From Candidatus Actinomarina sp. (lineage in GTDB: Bacteria; Actinomycetota; Acidimicrobiia; Actinomarinales; Actinomarinaceae): DNA of 64,000 nt. Both the position numbers and the translations under genes were made by a program. Below, piece by piece: positions 44,712-51,035 of the stretch. Positions within the stretch are counted from its first letter, which is position 1. Each line of letters begins with the position of its first letter. The stretch is taken from NCBI GenBank assembly GCA_016777845.1, contig JADHQS010000001.1:3573-67572 (forward strand), in the 5' to 3' direction. The notes under the pieces were generated by a model, which searched no databases, had not been told where the DNA came from, and saw only the letters and a program-made list of their open reading frames with translations.

Positions 44712-45696
44712 AAATATTTACTTAAACCGAACTGAAGAATTAATCAAACATATTAATGGAGAATTATCAAATGAGAGCTTAATTATTTTGGACTCTGCTC
44801 TCGAGCAATTTCAATTACATAACAACTTTAATGCAAGCCATGTTTATCTAGAAGTATCTGAAGAAACAAAGAATTTAGAAACAATTGAAAAAATTTGGGA
44901 AATAATGTTTTTATCAAATTTAAATAGGTCACATGAAGTAGTAATTATTGGAGGTGGGGTTATGCTCGATCTCTGCTCTTTTGCTGCAAGTACATACAAA
45001 AGGGGTGTTGCCTTCACATTAGTTCCGTCTACTTTATTAGCTATGGTTGATGCATCTCATGGAGGGAAAAACGGTTTTAATAATGTTCATGGAAAAAACC
45101 AGATTGGAACTTTTAATTTGCCAAAGAGTGTTGTTGTGTGTTTTGAACTTCTTAACACATTGAAAGATAATGATTATAAAGATGGATTAATTGAGCTTGT
45201 AAAACATGGACTAATTGGAAGTAGAGAAATATTTAATGAATTGGTTTTTACAGAAAATTTCAAAATAGATACTAAGACAATCAAAAAAGGAATACAGATC
45301 AAAGAAGATATCGTAAAAGAAGATTACTTAGAAACTGGAAAAAGGAAATATTTAAATTTTGGACACACAATTGGCCACTTAATCGAGCAAGATTCGAAGT
45401 TCAATTTATCACACGGTGAAGCAGTCGCTATAGGAATAATTTATGAACTCGAACTGTCAAAGAAACATTTTGGATTACCACAAGAGGTAATTGATTTATA
45501 TATATCGTATCTAGAAAAACTTAATTTCAAGAAATCATATAAATTTGAAAACAATATCGATTACTTATTAGAAATCTTAAAAGATGATAAAAAAAGCAAA
45601 TCTGATTCTGTAGATATTGTTTTATTGTCAGATATATCACAACCTAATTTAATTAGTATAAGTTTTGATGAATTGATTGAGGTGATTCAAAATTAA
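44704..45696 (+). CDS. aroB: 3-dehydroquinate synthase
   Basis: 330 aa; GGGVMLDL, metal-binding HG..HLIE / HGEAV. Confidence 0.9.
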   Translation: MPKNIYLNRTEELIKHINGELSNESLIILDSALEQFQLHNNFNASHVYLEVSEETKNLETIEKIWEIMFLSNLNRSHEVVIIGGGVMLDLCSFAASTYKRGVAFTLVPSTLLAMVDASHGGKNGFNNVHGKNQIGTFNLPKSVVVCFELLNTLKDNDYKDGLIELVKHGLIGSREIFNELVFTENFKIDTKTIKKGIQIKEDIVKEDYLETGKRKYLNFGHTIGHLIEQDSKFNLSHGEAVAIGIIYELELSKKHFGLPQEVIDLYISYLEKLNFKKSYKFENNIDYLLEILKDDKKSKSDSVDIVLLSDISQPNLISISFDELIEVIQN

Positions 45697-46129
45697 AAAT
45701 ATATACATTATCAATGGTCCCAATCTTAATTTTTTAGGTATTAGAGAAATTACACAATACGGCTCCACAAGTTATGATGAGTTAAAAAATTTAGTAAATT
45801 CTGAAGCTAAAAAGTTAAAAATCAAAACTGATTTTTTTCAATCAAATATTGAAGGCGAAATTGTAAATTATATACAAAATCTAGTTAATAATGAAAATAC
45901 ATGGATTGTGATTAACCCTGGTGCGTACACACATACAAGTATTGCAATAAGAGACGCTTTGCAGACTTACTCACAAAACAATGAAATAGTTGAAGTTCAT
46001 ATTTCAGATATAAATCAAAGAGAGCAATTTAGAAAAATAAACTTAATTTCTGATATTTGCAATAAATCAATTATTGGAAGAGGTGTGCAGGGATATATAG
46101 AAGCACTGGAGTATATTAATGAACAGTAA
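45692..46129 (+). CDS. aroQ: 3-dehydroquinate dehydratase, type II (start codon non-canonical/uncertain)
   Basis: In-frame translation from 45692 gives (I)KNIYIINGPNLNFLGIREITQYG...WIVINPGAYTHTSIAIRDAL, a full-length type II DHQase; no ATG/GTG/TTG between upstream in-frame TGA (45683) and residue about 72. Confidence 0.8.
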   Translation: MKNIYIINGPNLNFLGIREITQYGSTSYDELKNLVNSEAKKLKIKTDFFQSNIEGEIVNYIQNLVNNENTWIVINPGAYTHTSIAIRDALQTYSQNNEIVEVHISDINQREQFRKINLISDICNKSIIGRGVQGYIEALEYINEQ

Positions 46130-46940
46130 AAAAATAATTGCTTACCAGGGTTCATCTGGCTCATATTCAGAACAACTTTTGAAAAAAGAATATCCAGATT
46201 ATCTGTATCATCCAACAGAAACATTTACTGAGTTAATTTCTTATGTAAAATCTGATTCTGGCATTGGATTATTACCTGTTGAGAATTCAATTGCAGGTAC
46301 TGTGAATGAAGCATACGAAGAGCTTATAGACAGTGGTTTAAAAATCTTTGCTGAATATATACACAGAATTAACCATAGTTTAATTGGCTTAGTGGGTTCA
46401 GATATATCAAATATTACAAATGTTATTTCTCACCCACAGGCATTACAGCAATGCAGCAAGTTTATACAAAAGTATAAGTTCAGAATCACTCCAGTCTTTG
46501 ATACAGCGGGAAGTGTATTTGAAATTTTAGAAAAAAATGAACTTACTATCGCTGCGATAGCCGGTGAACATTTTGAAAGCGATGAAAGATTTTTGATTTT
46601 AGAAAAAAATATATCAAATCATGAAGAAAATTATACAAGATTCCTTCTGATTGGAAATATAGATTTAGATCATAAACAATTTAATAACAAGGTTTCATCA
46701 GTACTCATATCTGATGATAAGCCAGGTTCATTATTGCAGTCTTTGAATATTTTTAGTGAACTGGATATAAACCTAACAAAACTTGAATCACGACCAATAC
46801 TTGGAAGACCTTGGGAGTACAAATTTTACATAGATTATGAACTAGAAAACTTGGAAAAACAATATGAGCTTGAGGAAAAAATAAGTAAAGTCGCCAAAGA
46901 ATTTAAGTTATTGGGGCATTATCCAAAAGCTATTCAGTAA
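46119..46940 (+). CDS. pheA: prephenate dehydratase (PDT + ACT domains)
   Basis: 273 aa; PDT domain, C-terminal ACT (ESRP motif). Confidence 0.88.
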   Translation: MNSKKIIAYQGSSGSYSEQLLKKEYPDYLYHPTETFTELISYVKSDSGIGLLPVENSIAGTVNEAYEELIDSGLKIFAEYIHRINHSLIGLVGSDISNITNVISHPQALQQCSKFIQKYKFRITPVFDTAGSVFEILEKNELTIAAIAGEHFESDERFLILEKNISNHEENYTRFLLIGNIDLDHKQFNNKVSSVLISDDKPGSLLQSLNIFSELDINLTKLESRPILGRPWEYKFYIDYELENLEKQYELEEKISKVAKEFKLLGHYPKAIQ

Positions 46941-48039
46941 CTTTCCATTGAATACCTTCTTCAGAATCTTCTATTTGTAAACCAGCAGATTCTAATATAT
47001 TTCTAATTTGATCAGAAAGCTCATAATTTTTTTCATTTCTCAACTTTGATCTAAGTGTTATTAGATTTTCAATTAATATTTCGAAGCGCTCATTATTTTT
47101 TTTATTAGACTCTATTTGAATTTCTAAATTAGCGATTTCTTTCAAGATAGCTTTATCTGTAGAATTTACTTCAGTTGCAATACTATCTATTTTTTCGACA
47201 GAGCTTTTTTTGTCAGAAATCAGAAGTTTTTGTAGTGCACTCAAACTTTCTTCAGATTTATTTTCAAAAATATGAGTTCCTTCATTATTTAAAACAGTTA
47301 CATTACCTAATCCAACAACTTTGAAAGTTTCTTTTTTGCCAGAAATTATTAGTGCTGTATGTTCATCGATACCAAGAATATTTGAGTAAGAGTTATCTAG
47401 AAGAGTTTTCATTCTATTTTCCCCAACATAACTAAAGCTTGTATCATGATTTCCACCCTCTGCATTATTAAAGTGAGGAACTACAGTACAAGACAAACCA
47501 TAAACATCTAAAATATTCAACCCCTTTTCCCAATAAGGATCTTGACCAACTTTATAAATTTCATAAACAGGCAAGGTATACTCTCCGAGAGTAGAGGCTG
47601 CTGCACTTGCAAATACACTGTTGTTACCATTTATAAGATGATTTTTTAAAGTTTTTTGAAACTCATTACCGAACCAAAGCTTGCTTGCATAGCTAGGGCT
47701 TCCAGGTCCAGCAAAAATAAATGAAGCATTTTCCAATAATTGAATTGATTTAAAGAATGATTTTGAATGTAATTCTTCAATTTTTCTGTAAGTAGCTAAT
47801 TTCATATCAACGTTTAAACTAACTTTGTAAAAATCTATAATTTTTTTGACCAATTGGCTAGCATTTTCCTGGAATCCAAATGGCGAATCAATCATTAAAA
47901 CATCTGAAGAATCATCTAGTCCATGTAGAAGTTCTCTATGTACACTAACTAAGTTAGGACTTGTTTCACCGGATCCTAAAATAGCTAATGAACCTGTAGC
48001 TTTTTTCATTAAACTATTATATATTTTTTTTGTATACAA
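46930..48039 (-). CDS. peptidase S51 (cyanophycinase/dipeptidase E)-like domain protein with coiled-coil and CysRS C-terminal-like tail
   Basis: 369 aa; N-terminal LAILGSGE...ASFIFAGPGSP...FASAAAS resembles the S51 [AD]xIFFxGG...GTSAG layout; C-terminal NEKNYELSDQIRNILESAGLQIEDSEEGIQWKV resembles the CysRS C-terminus (KD[WF]..SDxIRDxL...GIxLED...GTxWR). Confidence 0.5.
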   Translation of the reverse strand: MYTKKIYNSLMKKATGSLAILGSGETSPNLVSVHRELLHGLDDSSDVLMIDSPFGFQENASQLVKKIIDFYKVSLNVDMKLATYRKIEELHSKSFFKSIQLLENASFIFAGPGSPSYASKLWFGNEFQKTLKNHLINGNNSVFASAAASTLGEYTLPVYEIYKVGQDPYWEKGLNILDVYGLSCTVVPHFNNAEGGNHDTSFSYVGENRMKTLLDNSYSNILGIDEHTALIISGKKETFKVVGLGNVTVLNNEGTHIFENKSEESLSALQKLLISDKKSSVEKIDSIATEVNSTDKAILKEIANLEIQIESNKKNNERFEILIENLITLRSKLRNEKNYELSDQIRNILESAGLQIEDSEEGIQWKVTE

Positions 48040-48060: not shown

Positions 48061-49059
48061 ATGGCAAGATTTTTAGCTTTTGTTCTTGAAAAATTTACAA
48101 TTGAAATCATTCCAAAGCTTCCTCTACTTATAAGGACACCACTATATGTAAACATATTAAAACTTAGAAAAGTTCGTGACCGAATTAGGCTCGATGTAAC
48201 GAAAAAAAATCCTACATTTCAAGATCGCTTAAATTATGCTATCGATTCAAGAGCAAATCTAAATAATTCAGGTGAAAGAATTTTATCTTTTAATGATGAA
48301 GTTCAAATGGAGGAACTAGAAGACTCACCTGTAAAGATTTATAAATTCACTCCAAAAAATGCGGAGACTGGAAAGTATGGTGTTTATTTTCATGGAGGAG
48401 GTTATTTTGCAGGTAGTATTAAATCTCATAAAAATTTTGTTTCAATCGTTTCTCAAAAATCTAATTTAGTAACTTATTTTTTTGAATATAGGCTCAGTCC
48501 AGAACATAATTTTCCTGCTGCCCATGAAGATGCAAAAATAGCTATAGAATTTATTGACAACCTTCACAAAGACGAACAATCAATTTGGATGGGTGAGTCA
48601 GCTGGAGGAGGCCTAGCCACAGGTCTTGTGGTGGATGGTGGGTTTGTATACAATCCTGACAATCTCATTTTACTCTCACCATGGCTAGATTTGTCAGATG
48701 GGTTCCAAGACAAAAGATTTCTTAAAAACAGAGACATAACAATAATAATTGAGGGAATGTATGAGGTTGGAGAGTTTTATGCGGGGGAGTATGGCACTAC
48801 CAACCCAATACTGTCACCAGTTTATGCAGATATTAATAATTTTCCAGATACTTTAATTCAAGTCTGCTCTGATGAATTACTTTACAATGATGCAATTGAA
48901 TTTGTGAAAAAATTAAGAGATAAGAATACAAATGTACAACTTCAAACATGGGATAAGCTTTGGCATGCATGGCACTTTTTTCCAATTAAGGAAGCATTTG
49001 AGGCTATTGATAACATAGCTGAATATATTAAGTCCTCAGAATTTCACTCTTCTAAATGA
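48061..49059 (+). CDS. alpha/beta-hydrolase fold esterase/lipase (HSL/Aes family)
   Basis: HGGGY oxyanion motif, GESAGG nucleophile elbow; start at ATG 48061 (MARFLAF) preferred over GTG 48046. Confidence 0.8.
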   Translation: MARFLAFVLEKFTIEIIPKLPLLIRTPLYVNILKLRKVRDRIRLDVTKKNPTFQDRLNYAIDSRANLNNSGERILSFNDEVQMEELEDSPVKIYKFTPKNAETGKYGVYFHGGGYFAGSIKSHKNFVSIVSQKSNLVTYFFEYRLSPEHNFPAAHEDAKIAIEFIDNLHKDEQSIWMGESAGGGLATGLVVDGGFVYNPDNLILLSPWLDLSDGFQDKRFLKNRDITIIIEGMYEVGEFYAGEYGTTNPILSPVYADINNFPDTLIQVCSDELLYNDAIEFVKKLRDKNTNVQLQTWDKLWHAWHFFPIKEAFEAIDNIAEYIKSSEFHSSK

Positions 49060-49790
49060 TGAAGGGCAAATCCAAAAGGTAATTCCAACCTGTTGTCTGA
49101 CATAATTTTTTCGTTTTTAAGAATTTTATAAGTGTCATCATCTGCAGTAATTTTACCGTTGTTTAAAATTACACTTCTATTACAAATTTCCAATGCCATT
49201 GGTAAATCATGCGTAACAAGGATAATTGATACATCTAAATTTTTAAGTATATCTATTAGTTCCCTCCTAGAAGCAGGATCTAAATTTGAACTAGGTTCAT
49301 CTAAAACTAGTAATTCAGGCTCTGAAGCCAGAACACTTGCTATTGCCACTTTTCTTTTTTGACCAAAGCTTAAATGGTGTGGTGGTTTGTCTTTAAACTG
49401 CAACATCTTAACTTGTTCGAGTGCGTTGATTGAATTTTTCTTCACTAACTCATCACTGAATCCAAAATTTTTTGGTCCAAACATTACATCTTCTAACACA
49501 GTTGGCATAAATAGTTGATCATCAGGATCCTGGAAAACTAAACCTACAGATTTTCGAATTTTTGAAATATTTTCTTCGGAAAAATCTATATTATTTAATG
49601 TAATTTTTCCGTTTAAATCACCTAGAATCCCGTTCAAATGAAGAATAAGAGTAGTTTTACCTGCTCCATTAGGGCCTAATACAGCAAGCCTTTCACCTTT
49701 TGATAAACTTAGATTTATATTTTCAAGAGCTTTAAATCCATCTGGATATTCAAAACTTAAGTTATCTATATTCAGGTATTCCTGCTTCAT
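49044..49790 (-). CDS. ecfA: ECF transporter ATPase (CbiO/EcfA family)
   Basis: 248 aa; Walker A GPNGAGKTT, ABC signature, Walker B LLVLDEP. Confidence 0.88.
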   Translation of the reverse strand: MKQEYLNIDNLSFEYPDGFKALENINLSLSKGERLAVLGPNGAGKTTLILHLNGILGDLNGKITLNNIDFSEENISKIRKSVGLVFQDPDDQLFMPTVLEDVMFGPKNFGFSDELVKKNSINALEQVKMLQFKDKPPHHLSFGQKRKVAIASVLASEPELLVLDEPSSNLDPASRRELIDILKNLDVSIILVTHDLPMALEICNRSVILNNGKITADDDTYKILKNEKIMSDNRLELPFGFALHHLEE

Positions 49791-50551
49791 AAAACGAACC
49801 TATCTACAATACAAATTACAATTGAAAATATAGAAATTAGAAGAATTAAATTAGATGAATTAAACTCTCGTGCCTCTAGCTCTAACGTTCCTTTAAAGCC
49901 TCTAGAAATCATAGAATTATAAACCCTTTCTCCTCTTTCATACCCCCTAATCAATAAGGCACCAGATGCAAAAGCAAGTGGCTTAAGTGTTTTGATTCCT
50001 TTTTCAGAATAACCTCTAGAGCGCATTGATATTTTTACTCTTTTTACCTCGTCAATGAATACATCAATATATCTAATTGCAAAAGAAAATATAGAAATTA
50101 ACAAAGGTGATACTTTAAGTTTCTGTAATCCATATATTATTTCGATATTAGACGTTGTCGCAGTAAGAACAATTGCCAACGTGACACAAAGAGTAATTTT
50201 TATCAGAATTGATATCATTTCATCAACTCCAGTCTTATAAATACTGAAATTAAAAAAACTTGTTAAGACTTCTCCATTCCCTTTACTCACAAATGGTAAA
50301 AATAAGGCGAACAATATAAATGGTATATCTATTGAAAGTCTTTTTAAATATGTTTTAAGTTGTAATCTTGAAACAATCAATAAACCCGCAACTATTACTG
50401 CTTGAAGTACAACCGAAACATTGTTTTCTAAACTCAAAAAGGCAATAGAGAGAATAATTGCAAAAAAGGAAAGTAATTTTATTTCAGGTTTGATTTTAAC
50501 TAAATACGAGTCACTATGAGTTTCTAAATGATGAGAATGGGATGTTTCCAT
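49787..50551 (-). CDS. ecfT: ECF transporter transmembrane T component (CbiQ/EcfT family) with His-rich N-terminus
   Basis: 254 aa multi-TM, CbiQ-like; N-terminus METSHSHHLETH; 4-nt overlap with ecfA. Confidence 0.75.
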   Translation of the reverse strand: METSHSHHLETHSDSYLVKIKPEIKLLSFFAIILSIAFLSLENNVSVVLQAVIVAGLLIVSRLQLKTYLKRLSIDIPFILFALFLPFVSKGNGEVLTSFFNFSIYKTGVDEMISILIKITLCVTLAIVLTATTSNIEIIYGLQKLKVSPLLISIFSFAIRYIDVFIDEVKRVKISMRSRGYSEKGIKTLKPLAFASGALLIRGYERGERVYNSMISRGFKGTLELEAREFNSSNLILLISIFSIVICIVDRFVL

Positions 50552-50566
50552 ATTTGTATATCTTAA

Positions 50567-50581
50567 TGCAAATTATTTGCA
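50567..50581. promoter_or_regulatory. perfect 7-1-7 inverted repeat TGCAAAT-T-ATTTGCA (candidate Fur-family operator)
   Basis: Located in the 39-bp gap between the Fur-family gene stop and the ecfT start; 7-1-7 architecture as for Fur/PerR/Zur boxes. Confidence 0.5.
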
Positions 50582-50590
50582 ATAAAAGAT

Positions 50591-51001
50591 TTATTTACAT
50601 TTTTTGCAATACCCTGAGTATACGAAGTGATTTGTTATCTCTCTAAAATTTGTTTTACTAGTTATTAGATCATTTACTTTTTCGGATGTTTTTATATCAA
50701 GATCTGAAATGTCTCCACATGACTCACACACAATATGTATATTTGAATGTACATCTTTTACAAAATATAATCCTGACCCATGTACCTGGTGAGAATGTTC
50801 AATTAGATTTATATTTTCTAAAAGTTCTAGAGTTCTATAAACAGTAGCCAAGTCAATATTTTTATCTTTTTTTAATGAAAGTTTATGTAGCTCTTCAACA
50901 GTAAAGTGTTTATGCCCAGATGTTCCAAGAATTTTGCAAACGACTTCTCTTGCATTAGTTATTCTTTTACCTCTTTTTCGTAATTCATTAACGAAATCCA
51001 T
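50591..51001 (-). CDS. Fur-family metalloregulator (Fur/Zur/Nur/PerR)
   Basis: MDFVNELRKRGKRITNAREVV... winged-helix N-terminus, HSHQVHG and C-terminal CxxC...CxxC; the ORF-track upstream start (51031) adds 10 aa not typical of Fur proteins. Confidence 0.8.
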   Translation of the reverse strand: MDFVNELRKRGKRITNAREVVCKILGTSGHKHFTVEELHKLSLKKDKNIDLATVYRTLELLENINLIEHSHQVHGSGLYFVKDVHSNIHIVCESCGDISDLDIKTSEKVNDLITSKTNFREITNHFVYSGYCKKCK

Positions 51002-51035
51002 ATCCAAGTATATTATATGTTTGGCGGGCAAAATT

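Follow-up and report, generated by a model that had tools for sequence, protein, structure and literature searches.

An S51-type serine hydrolase joined to a CysRS-derived anticodon-binding module: a candidate tRNA-Cys-directed enzyme family in Candidatus Actinomarina and other bacteria

Introduction

What would an enzyme do that combines a peptidase-type serine hydrolase with a piece of a cysteinyl-tRNA synthetase (CysRS)? The question is raised by a minus-strand gene in a 64,000-nucleotide stretch of the Candidatus Actinomarina sp. genome (contig JADHQS010000001.1, positions 3,573 to 67,572; hereafter the window), whose product, together with its family, we refer to as the S51-CysS_C protein. 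In one of the most common marine actinobacteria, in which the protein is abundant, it was interpreted as a 'cyanophycinase' and as evidence of nitrogen-storage metabolism; this interpretation is probably wrong. Sequence comparison and structural modeling suggest instead that it acts on Cys-tRNA-Cys as a tRNA-Cys-directed serine acyl-enzyme catalyst, either a transferase or a deacylase; we propose this function tentatively, as a serious possibility somewhat short of probable.

The gene and its product

An initial annotation, made from the sequence alone, had placed the open reading frame (ORF) at 46930-48039; this location is confirmed, on the minus strand, and the motifs quoted for it (LAILGSGE, FIFAGPGS and FASAAAS) and the tail NEKNYELSDQIRNILESAGLQIEDSEEGIQWKV are all found in the ORF. 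The mechanical ORF encodes 369 aa from a TTG at 48039. The product is probably 359 aa, because homologs, which are 355-361 aa long, align from an ATG at 48009 (MKKATGS...). Residue numbering follows the 359-aa form throughout; the number in the 369-aa ORF is higher by 10. The features of the gene are as follows.

46930..48009, minus strand: coding sequence, 359 aa plus stop; homologs align from MKK...
47245..48009, minus strand: predicted S51 serine hydrolase domain (class I glutamine-amidotransferase-like), residues 1-255; from Foldseek and profile against the PDB
47605..47607, minus strand: Ser135 codon, predicted nucleophile, motif FASAAAS; aligned to CSAGA of 6nqc
47473..47475, minus strand: His179 codon, predicted triad histidine, VVPHFNN; from alignment and conservation
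47362..47364, minus strand: Glu216 codon, predicted triad acid, GIDEHTA; from alignment and conservation
47164..47244, minus strand: variable linker, residues 256-282; low confidence
46933..47163, minus strand: CysRS-derived C-terminal module, residues 283-359; from profile matches and a tail-only AlphaFold2 model
47002..47052, minus strand: predicted anticodon-contact segment with R320, R324, Y329, D333 and R336; from alignment to E. coli CysRS

The S51 serine hydrolase domain

The AlphaFold2 model of the full protein (predicted local distance difference test, pLDDT, 87; predicted template modeling score, pTM, 0.79) was compared with solved structures using Foldseek, which returned 6nqc as the best match (E 1.5e-16, TM-target 0.83), together with PepE (7ffp, 6a4r and 1fy2, ~1e-11) and cyanophycinase (3en0 and 7uqw, ~1e-10). 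Searches of the PDB from sequence also reached 6nqc, at E 2.4e-6 with phmmer and the single window protein and at E 2.3e-13 with a profile of 60 family members, and the Pfam family Peptidase_S51 (PF03575) is matched by 37 of these 60 members at E <= 0.01 (best 1.9e-7). The structure closest to the S51-CysS_C protein, 6nqc, comes from a freshwater actinobacterium ('peptidase from an acI-B1 Actinobacterium', a cyanophycinase-like exopeptidase of COG4242) and has the fold and the Ser-His-Glu triad in common with it. More broadly, 6nqc, PepE and CphB (MEROPS S51) share the elements GSGE, G-P/D-P-x-Y, SA(G/A)A, PHF and GIDE with the S51-CysS_C protein, but they are without the CysRS-type tail that it carries. 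The initial annotation had called the first 280 aa S51-like, which stands for the fold, by Foldseek and by profile, and not for the extent, the domain being ~255 aa long.

The predicted triad aligns to the SAG, PHF and IDE positions of 6nqc. In an alignment of 133 full-length representatives, one per 50%-identity cluster, Ser135 and His179 are each present in 133/133 sequences and Glu216 in 128/133 (100, 100 and 96%). By fold and triad, as judged from sequence and model, the protein is a divergent subfamily of S51. Its near-invariant motifs are GSGE, FQxN, GPGSPxY, PVYEIYKxG and PHFNNxEGGxHDT..CYxGExR, of which PVYEIYKxG and the last fall at gaps or different residues in 6nqc; the stretch after His179, NNxEGGxHDT..(C/S)YxGExR, is family-specific and absent from 6nqc. 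The cyanophycinase equivalog model TIGR02069 aligns in two short stretches at 32.4 bits (E 6.3e-8) against a cutoff of 126.6 bits, and on this sequence evidence the protein is no ortholog of cyanophycinase. We also considered a zinc site with Cys193 at its centre, which is unlikely, the residue being Ser in the Actinomarina clade.

The CysRS-derived C-terminal module

The C-terminal part of the protein leads to CysRS. With phmmer the single window protein matched the CysRS structures 8qhp (1.8e-6) and 6ujd (3.5e-6), and NCBIfam CysRS models aligned their last ~100 positions to residues 264-366 of the 369-aa ORF (E 1.7e-8); for TIGR00435/PRK14536 the aligned model positions are 362-464 of 466, at 29-34 bits against cutoffs of 340-780. 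In the whole PDB, the 60-member profile matched, besides 6nqc, only the extreme C-termini of five CysRS structures: 8qhp (3.8e-13), 6ujd (2.5e-11), 3tqo (5.6e-11), 1li5/1u0b from E. coli (2.7e-9) and 3sp1 (1.5e-5). The Pfam family CysS_C (PF23493) is matched by 30 of the 60 members (best 7.4e-10).

The module is predicted to consist of a long helix (283-325), a second helix (329-341) and a beta-hairpin (344-357), and the long helix is, by alignment, the counterpart of the helix located before the anticodon-binding domain in CysRS (E. coli 365-402). A tail-only AlphaFold2 model (pLDDT 79) has 1u0b_B, E. coli CysRS with tRNA-Cys, as its best PDB match (45 columns, root mean square deviation 1.2 Å, 33% identity, probability 1.00), at an E-value of only 0.057 because the domain is small. 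The separate 50-aa coiled coil of the initial annotation does not survive, since this segment is the single long predicted helix and belongs to the CysRS-derived module; the resemblance that it had noted in the final 35 aa is homology to the CysRS C-terminus, with a borrowed piece of ~90 residues. Ahead of the module, linker residues 268-280 have a pLDDT below 50, and the length differences within the family sit in the linker 256-282. The tail motif is present in 132 of 148 representatives, and the others that were examined are short or apparently frameshifted. Profile searches, structure prediction and a phylogenetic survey, the checks recommended with the initial annotation, agree on the fusion: both parts are significant with the 60-sequence profile, the full and tail models match 6nqc and 1u0b_B, respectively, and the combination occurs across six or more phyla. 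The two-module architecture is thus almost certain.

E. coli CysRS reads G34 of the anticodon via Arg427, Asp436 and Trp432, with Arg423 in a water network, and four positions, Arg427, Trp432, Asp436 and Arg439, were chosen for mutation to alter anticodon specificity (PMC12684709, PMC13449415). The corresponding residues of the S51-CysS_C family, with their frequency among the 133 representatives, are listed below.

E. coli CysRS R423: R320, 133/133
E. coli CysRS R427: R324, 131/133
E. coli CysRS W432: position 329 (Y in the window protein), W/F/Y in 132/133
E. coli CysRS D436: D333, 133/133
E. coli CysRS R439: R336, 133/133

In at least six phyla these five G34-contact positions are kept at 98-100%, with a mean column identity in the family of only 37%. 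Such selective conservation is the chief reason to believe that the tail still performs its CysRS role, and it makes binding of tRNA-Cys by the tail likely. Since hardly any variation occurs in either the G34-contact residues or the Ser-His-Glu triad, the evidence points in the direction already proposed in the initial annotation, that of a tRNA- or aminoacyl-related hydrolase.

The S51-CysS_C protein is without the Rossmann catalytic domain, the HIGH/KMSKS motifs and the zinc site of CysRS, which leaves it unable to activate cysteine with ATP; a query with the catalytic part of E. coli CysS (residues 1-400) found nothing in the protein or in the window. A split CysRS was considered and rejected, as the CysRS located ~6 kb from the S51-CysS_C gene in one Acidimicrobiaceae locus (L013) retains its own tail: the tail of the S51-CysS_C protein is an additional copy of the CysRS module and not half of a split synthetase. 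The housekeeping cysS gene lies ~6 kb from the S51-CysS_C gene in four related Acidimicrobiaceae loci (L013, 448-1842, minus strand; L024; L034; L045); in L013 valS stands beside it and the final conserved Trp of the CysRS tail is replaced (…GTTHVRR). The idea that the tail is a generic 'CysS/YqeB' domain with uses beyond tRNA biology was likewise discarded, E. coli K-12 YqeB (L161, 4615-6240) giving an hhalign probability of 0.3% and no PF23493 match; the 'YqeB' of the database name given below must refer to something other than this protein.

Distribution and previous annotation

The family comprises ~8,000 clusters at 90% identity in each of two word-indexed searches, and 1,220 representatives at 50% identity with E <= 1e-3, of which 331 reach <= 1e-30. 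It is carried by at least 594 species genomes in six or more phyla; carriers include Acidimicrobiia, Micromonosporaceae, Pseudonocardiales, Chloroflexota and Dormibacterota, as well as Desulfobacterota/Thermodesulfobacteriota, Rokubacteriota and Vulcanimicrobiota, and one locus (L009) encodes a protein 93% identical to the window protein. The fusion had been presented as unusual and as no described family. In number it is not unusual, and its pieces are labelled in databases, where it appears as 'hypothetical protein', 'cyanophycinase-like exopeptidase' (JGI), 'CysS/YqeB C-terminal domain-containing protein' (PGAP) and 'Type 1 glutamine amidotransferase-like domain-containing protein' (UniRef); what holds is that no function has been assigned, and in the literature we found no description or study of the family. 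The sequence family is thus already in databases with its pieces recognised, and the functional reading and the operon described below are what has not been described. When Ca. Actinomarina was described in 2013, 'the presence of a cyanophycinase' in common with acI was noted; this is very probably the S51-CysS_C gene or its tail-less relative.

A thiol-type operon in one branch of the family

Among 80 genome loci, same-strand partners of the S51-CysS_C gene were seen in five Desulfobacterota, one Rokubacteriota and one Vulcanimicrobiota locus. A second set of 80 metagenome loci, centred on this Desulfobacterota-type branch, brought the total to 160. The operon runs in the order (tail-less S51 paralog), S51-CysS_C gene, (ThuA-Gfo/Idh of 550 aa, Gfo/Idh of ~350 aa), Acetyltransf_6, glycosyltransferase family 4 (GT4) and PIG-L deacetylase, with 18 to ~365 nt between the S51-CysS_C gene and its first downstream partner. 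The matches of operon and nearby genes to equivalog models, listed below, are all below the NCBI curated cut-offs and are best matches, not assignments.

GT4 glycosyltransferase: best match MshA, 1.8e-92 (BshA, 1.4e-33)
PIG-L deacetylase: best match BshB1, 1.4e-28; also BshB2, Mca and MshB
GNAT/Fem-like acyltransferase: PF13480 (Acetyltransf_6), 2.6e-30; FemAB_like at 26 bits against a cutoff of 27
Gfo/Idh oxidoreductases: inositol 2-dehydrogenase and glycoside 3-dehydrogenase types
Nearby Ino1 (inositol-3-phosphate synthase): 5.6e-124 to mycothiol_INO1
Other nearby genes: haloacid dehalogenase-type HAD-IA phosphatase; GloB-like metallo-beta-lactamase (MBL) hydrolase; glutaredoxin-TrxB fusion in one locus

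The frequency of the operon was assessed in loci with at least 1.5 kb downstream of the gene, with identity measured to the S51-CysS_C protein of one locus (L074). At 50% identity or more, 28 of 33 loci have a same-strand partner, and 21 have both the acyltransferase and GT4. By best match, the operon has counterparts of every mycothiol step (Ino1, MshA, phosphatase, MshB, N-acyltransferase) except the cysteine ligase, and no CysRS/MshC-type gene was found in the flanks of operon loci when all 160 loci were queried with the catalytic part of E. coli CysS. A search for solved-structure relatives of the CelD-like protein of the operon found none.

Several further associations were observed around the gene. 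The pair of ThuA-Gfo/Idh/MocA (~550 aa) and Gfo/Idh/MocA (~350 aa) genes is the sole partner that recurs across phyla (Acidimicrobiia, Rokubacteriota, Desulfobacterota); besides operon loci it occurs in L030, L033, L035, L039, L050, L053 and L071, and it recurs near the S51-CysS_C gene in six Acidimicrobiia-type loci. The tail-less S51 paralog (234-255 aa, with GSSAGA, IPHHD and GIDEQTG; cyanophycinase model E 1.7e-20) stands directly upstream of the S51-CysS_C gene on the same strand in 7-8 operon-type loci, including L042, L083, L087, L103, L139 and L146; co-expression of the two S51 paralogs follows from this arrangement, and a heterodimer of the two is possible. In L087, the gene at position -3 (418 aa), beside the operon, fuses, as read by eye from its motifs, a glutaredoxin-like CxxC domain (YGAHWCPDCRR) to a TrxB-type pyridine-nucleotide disulfide reductase (CATC), and its product is a candidate for reducing the disulfide of a low-molecular-weight thiol. 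Another sub-branch, with 45-50% identity to the L074 protein, carries downstream on the same strand a PNP/UDP-type nucleoside phosphorylase or AMP-nucleosidase-like gene, followed by a gene for a URO-D-like protein or a WrbA-like flavodoxin, and in some loci a thiamine diphosphate (ThDP) enzyme is divergent upstream (the last three identified by eye); the genes at +1/+2 were seen in L114, L116, L118, L120, L124, L131, L133, L138 and L143. This nucleoside-phosphorylase context is unrelated to the thiol-type operon.

Proposed mechanism and its standing

We propose that the S51-CysS_C protein is a cytosolic two-module enzyme whose C-terminal module would duplicate, as a free-standing unit, the helical arm and anticodon-binding domain of CysRS. 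The tail would dock on tRNA-Cys by reading the GCA anticodon, chiefly G34, and docking would bring the 3' end of the tRNA to the N-terminal S51 domain. The 43-residue helix would be ~64 Å long at 1.5 Å per residue, with the contact residues at its far end, a length of the right order of magnitude to span a tRNA, but it is preceded by a disordered linker of variable length. The Ser135-His179-Glu216 triad would then attack the aminoacyl ester of Cys-tRNA-Cys, giving a cysteinyl-enzyme intermediate that could pass its cysteine to an amine acceptor (cysteinyl transfer) or lose it to water (deacylation). The likeliest acceptor in the operon branch would be the deacetylated amino sugar of a glucosaminyl-inositol (GlcN-inositol)-type pseudodisaccharide, its free amine supplied by the PIG-L deacetylase, and the protein would perform the MshC step of mycothiol synthesis with Cys-tRNA as the activated donor, where MshC uses ATP. 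Here we infer tRNA binding, action on the ester bond, the choice between transfer and hydrolysis, and the acceptor. Catalysis on the aminoacyl bond, as read from the sequence, is plausible but falls a little short of probable; cysteinyl transfer in a mycothiol-like pathway in the operon branch is rather doubtful, and the same pathway role for the Actinomarina protein is more doubtful still. For the latter we infer, from its membership in the family, only the biochemical type and not the pathway.

A number of observations weigh against this proposal. Taken alone, the window protein scores below the cutoffs of both Pfam families (16 bits against a gathering cutoff of 23.9 for Peptidase_S51; 14 bits against 23 for CysS_C). 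The variable length of the linker (proteins of 346-470 aa) disfavours a rigid ruler between anticodon and acceptor end, and no tRNA-Cys gene was adjacent to the S51-CysS_C gene in 60 loci. The thiol-type operon is limited to one branch: a same-strand partner is present in 4 of 38 loci at 40-50% identity to the L074 protein and in 0 of 49 below 40%, including all Actinomycetota loci and the window, and the operon is absent from the Ca. Actinomarina locus. Genomes with the operon could have an MshC gene at another site, and the GNAT/Fem-like protein of the operon is in a fold class able to use aminoacyl-tRNA (aa-tRNA), so that it could itself be the transferase. The protein is also not simply an MshC substitute, because family members occur in organisms in which MshC is to be expected (such as Dactylosporangium and Actinoplanes) and Ca. 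Actinomarina is itself reported to have mycothiol genes.

Should the proposal be right, the protein would provide an ATP-independent, tRNA-dependent alternative to MshC/BshC, and mycothiol-like thiols would be made in Desulfobacterota, Rokubacteria and other non-actinobacterial lineages. The operon offers a concrete starting point for studying how a mycothiol-like redox buffer could be assembled without MshC in bacteria other than Actinomycetota, and it may also inform the cysteine-adding steps of thiol-cofactor pathways generally.

Alternative explanations

The same structural evidence, namely the triad and the G34-contact residues, would serve a trans-acting quality-control deacylase on tRNA-Cys, which would only hydrolyze a wrong or damaged aminoacyl group or excess Cys-tRNA-Cys. 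Such a function, suggested by analogy with stand-alone editing factors, fits the broad, housekeeping-like distribution of the family, with no conserved operon in most lineages including that of the window, as well as the fact that the S51 enzymes characterised so far are hydrolases; we nevertheless consider it unlikely, as it leaves the operon with GT4, PIG-L, GNAT and Ino1 genes in one branch unexplained and the protein has no YbaK, AlaX or DTD matches in Pfam/NCBIfam scans. The need for a tRNA-Cys editing factor is in itself doubtful, because CysRS is highly specific without an editing domain. A more conventional reading, to which we give a smaller chance, is an ordinary S51 peptidase of the cyanophycinase/dipeptidase-E type with a tail for oligomerisation, stability or a non-tRNA ligand. 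The S51 fold and triad, the JGI name 'cyanophycinase-like exopeptidase', the 'cyanophycinase' listed in the 2013 Ca. Actinomarina paper and the tail-less peptidase 6nqc as nearest structure are all compatible with it, whereas the score with the cyanophycinase equivalog (32 bits against 126.6) and the strict conservation of the tail are not: a structural or oligomerisation role would not demand 98-100% retention of exactly five G34-contact residues across phyla. Moreover, beyond the catalytic His the family has an invariant motif of its own in place of the cyanophycinase segment. In cyanophycinase, that segment is said to carry substrate-binding arginines, a result attributed to Law et al. 2009.

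The protein might also be a tRNA-Cys-sensing amidase, in which the tail, for example by binding uncharged tRNA-Cys during cysteine shortage, would gate an aminopeptidase-like activity of the S51 domain that frees cysteine from a Cys-amide conjugate (Cys-GlcN-inositol, for instance, or some other cysteinyl compound); the cysteine would then be installed, in the operon branch, by the GNAT/Fem-like enzyme and not by the S51-CysS_C protein. S51 enzymes do cleave amides beside a free alpha-amino acid (PepE with bound Asp, 6a4r), and the GNAT fold is an established class of aa-tRNA-dependent transferase (PMC12945691), with the operon protein close to the FemAB_like threshold (26 against 27 bits). 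This reading would account for the coexistence with MshC in Actinomycetes, but the best matches of the other operon genes are of biosynthetic type, and the idea is purely inferential. To our knowledge, no peptidase has been reported to be controlled by an anticodon-binding domain in the role of allosteric sensor, and we judge this explanation improbable.

Genomic neighborhood

In the window, the gene converges on the aro operon, as the initial annotation had stated: its 3' end and that of pheA (plus strand) overlap tail to tail by 11 bp (46930-46940), and aroE, aroC, aroK, aroB and aroQ lie upstream of pheA on the plus strand. No terminator-like hairpin was detected between pheA and the gene, and no above-chance promoter signal was found either. 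An Abhydrolase_3 esterase gene is divergent from the S51-CysS_C gene, and beyond it an energy-coupling factor (ECF) CbiO/CbiQ pair and a Fur-family regulator are encoded at 49044-51031, 1-3 kb away. In the 80 genome loci compared, no neighbor of the gene is universal and synteny is lineage-specific; the neighbors of the window (Fur, CbiQ, CbiO, Abhydrolase_3, pheA, aroQ, aroB, aroK) are kept together with the gene only within Actinomarinales and were taken as synteny, not function. The aro-operon neighborhood is without functional signal.

Many Acidimicrobiia have an alpha/beta hydrolase gene upstream and a convergent ZnuBCA-like transporter. The ZnuB/ZnuC/ZnuA-like Zn/Mn ABC transporter occupies positions +1 to +3 in ~18 Acidimicrobiia loci, including L010, L015, L016, L018, L028, L030, L050, L053, L060, L067 and L080. 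The ZnuBCA and Fur-ECF vicinity may reflect a metal connection or only synteny; a metal link of the protein was set aside, the transporter genes being on the opposite strand and lineage-restricted. In three loci, tRNA genes start within ~100 nt downstream of the S51-CysS_C gene: tRNA-Glu in L011 (9227-9300), a Glu-Asp-Phe cluster in L035 (9306-9608) and tRNA-Lys in L077 (9285-9357).

The aroQ gene of the window (type II dehydroquinase, 45686-46129, plus strand) is intact in frame (KIKNIYIINGPNLNFLGIRE...) and has no ATG, GTG or TTG before codon 74; the only start candidates near the true N-terminus are ATT at 45692, which overlaps the aroB stop, ATA at 45701 and ATT at 45707. An aroQ ORF of at least 90 aa is likewise not called in the nearest relatives L001, L002 and L009, and L003-L008 have a normal one that begins MSMNK. 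The pattern points to a start codon of a non-canonical kind or to translational coupling.

Comparison with known systems

The aa-tRNA-dependent enzyme classes covered in a recent review are aminoacyl-tRNA synthetase-like (aaRS-like), GNAT-fold, cyclodipeptide synthase (CDPS) and LanB-like peptide aminoacyl-tRNA ligase (PEARL) enzymes; the review mentions neither an S51 fold nor a covalent Ser-acyl mechanism nor anticodon reading (PMC12945691). Fem/GNAT enzymes, L/F-transferase, CDPSs, PEARLs and the aaRS-like AcmF and SbzA share with the S51-CysS_C protein the proposed use of aa-tRNA as an acyl donor outside translation, and the PEARL TglB is a precedent for Cys-tRNA-Cys as the donor (PMC12945691). 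Pfam/NCBIfam scans at E <= 10 gave no homology of the protein to Fem/GNAT, L/F-transferase, CDPS or PEARL families. It could found a fifth class, defined by the S51 fold, an anticodon-selected tRNA-Cys donor, a cysteinyl-serine acyl-enzyme and a GlcN-inositol-type acceptor, although we regard this as doubtful. An enzyme that picks one tRNA through the anticodon reader of a synthetase and then turns a peptidase-type active site on the cargo is not described among tRNA-dependent enzymes.

With CysRS itself, the protein shares ~90 homologous residues, comprising the C-terminal domain (PF23493; E. coli ~403-461) and the helix that precedes it. MshC, the Cys:GlcN-Ins ligase of mycothiol synthesis, is a CysRS paralog that keeps the CysRS catalytic core and is without the anticodon-binding domain. 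BshC adds the cysteine in bacillithiol synthesis. No NCBIfam match of the S51-CysS_C protein to MshC or BshC was found, and the CysS probe for a CysRS/MshC-type core (residues 1-400) was also empty, so that it could be at most a functional analog of MshC/BshC and not a member. In the operon branch it would take the place of the cysteine-adding enzyme that is missing there, next to genes resembling those of MshA, MshB/BshB and Ino1, by a different chemistry: ATP-dependent adenylation in MshC, an aa-tRNA donor and an acyl-enzyme in the mechanism proposed here. Both proteins contain a piece of CysRS, and the pieces are complementary, since the S51-CysS_C protein keeps, joined to a serine hydrolase, only the anticodon-binding module, the part that MshC lost, which would fit a switch of donor from Cys-AMP to Cys-tRNA.

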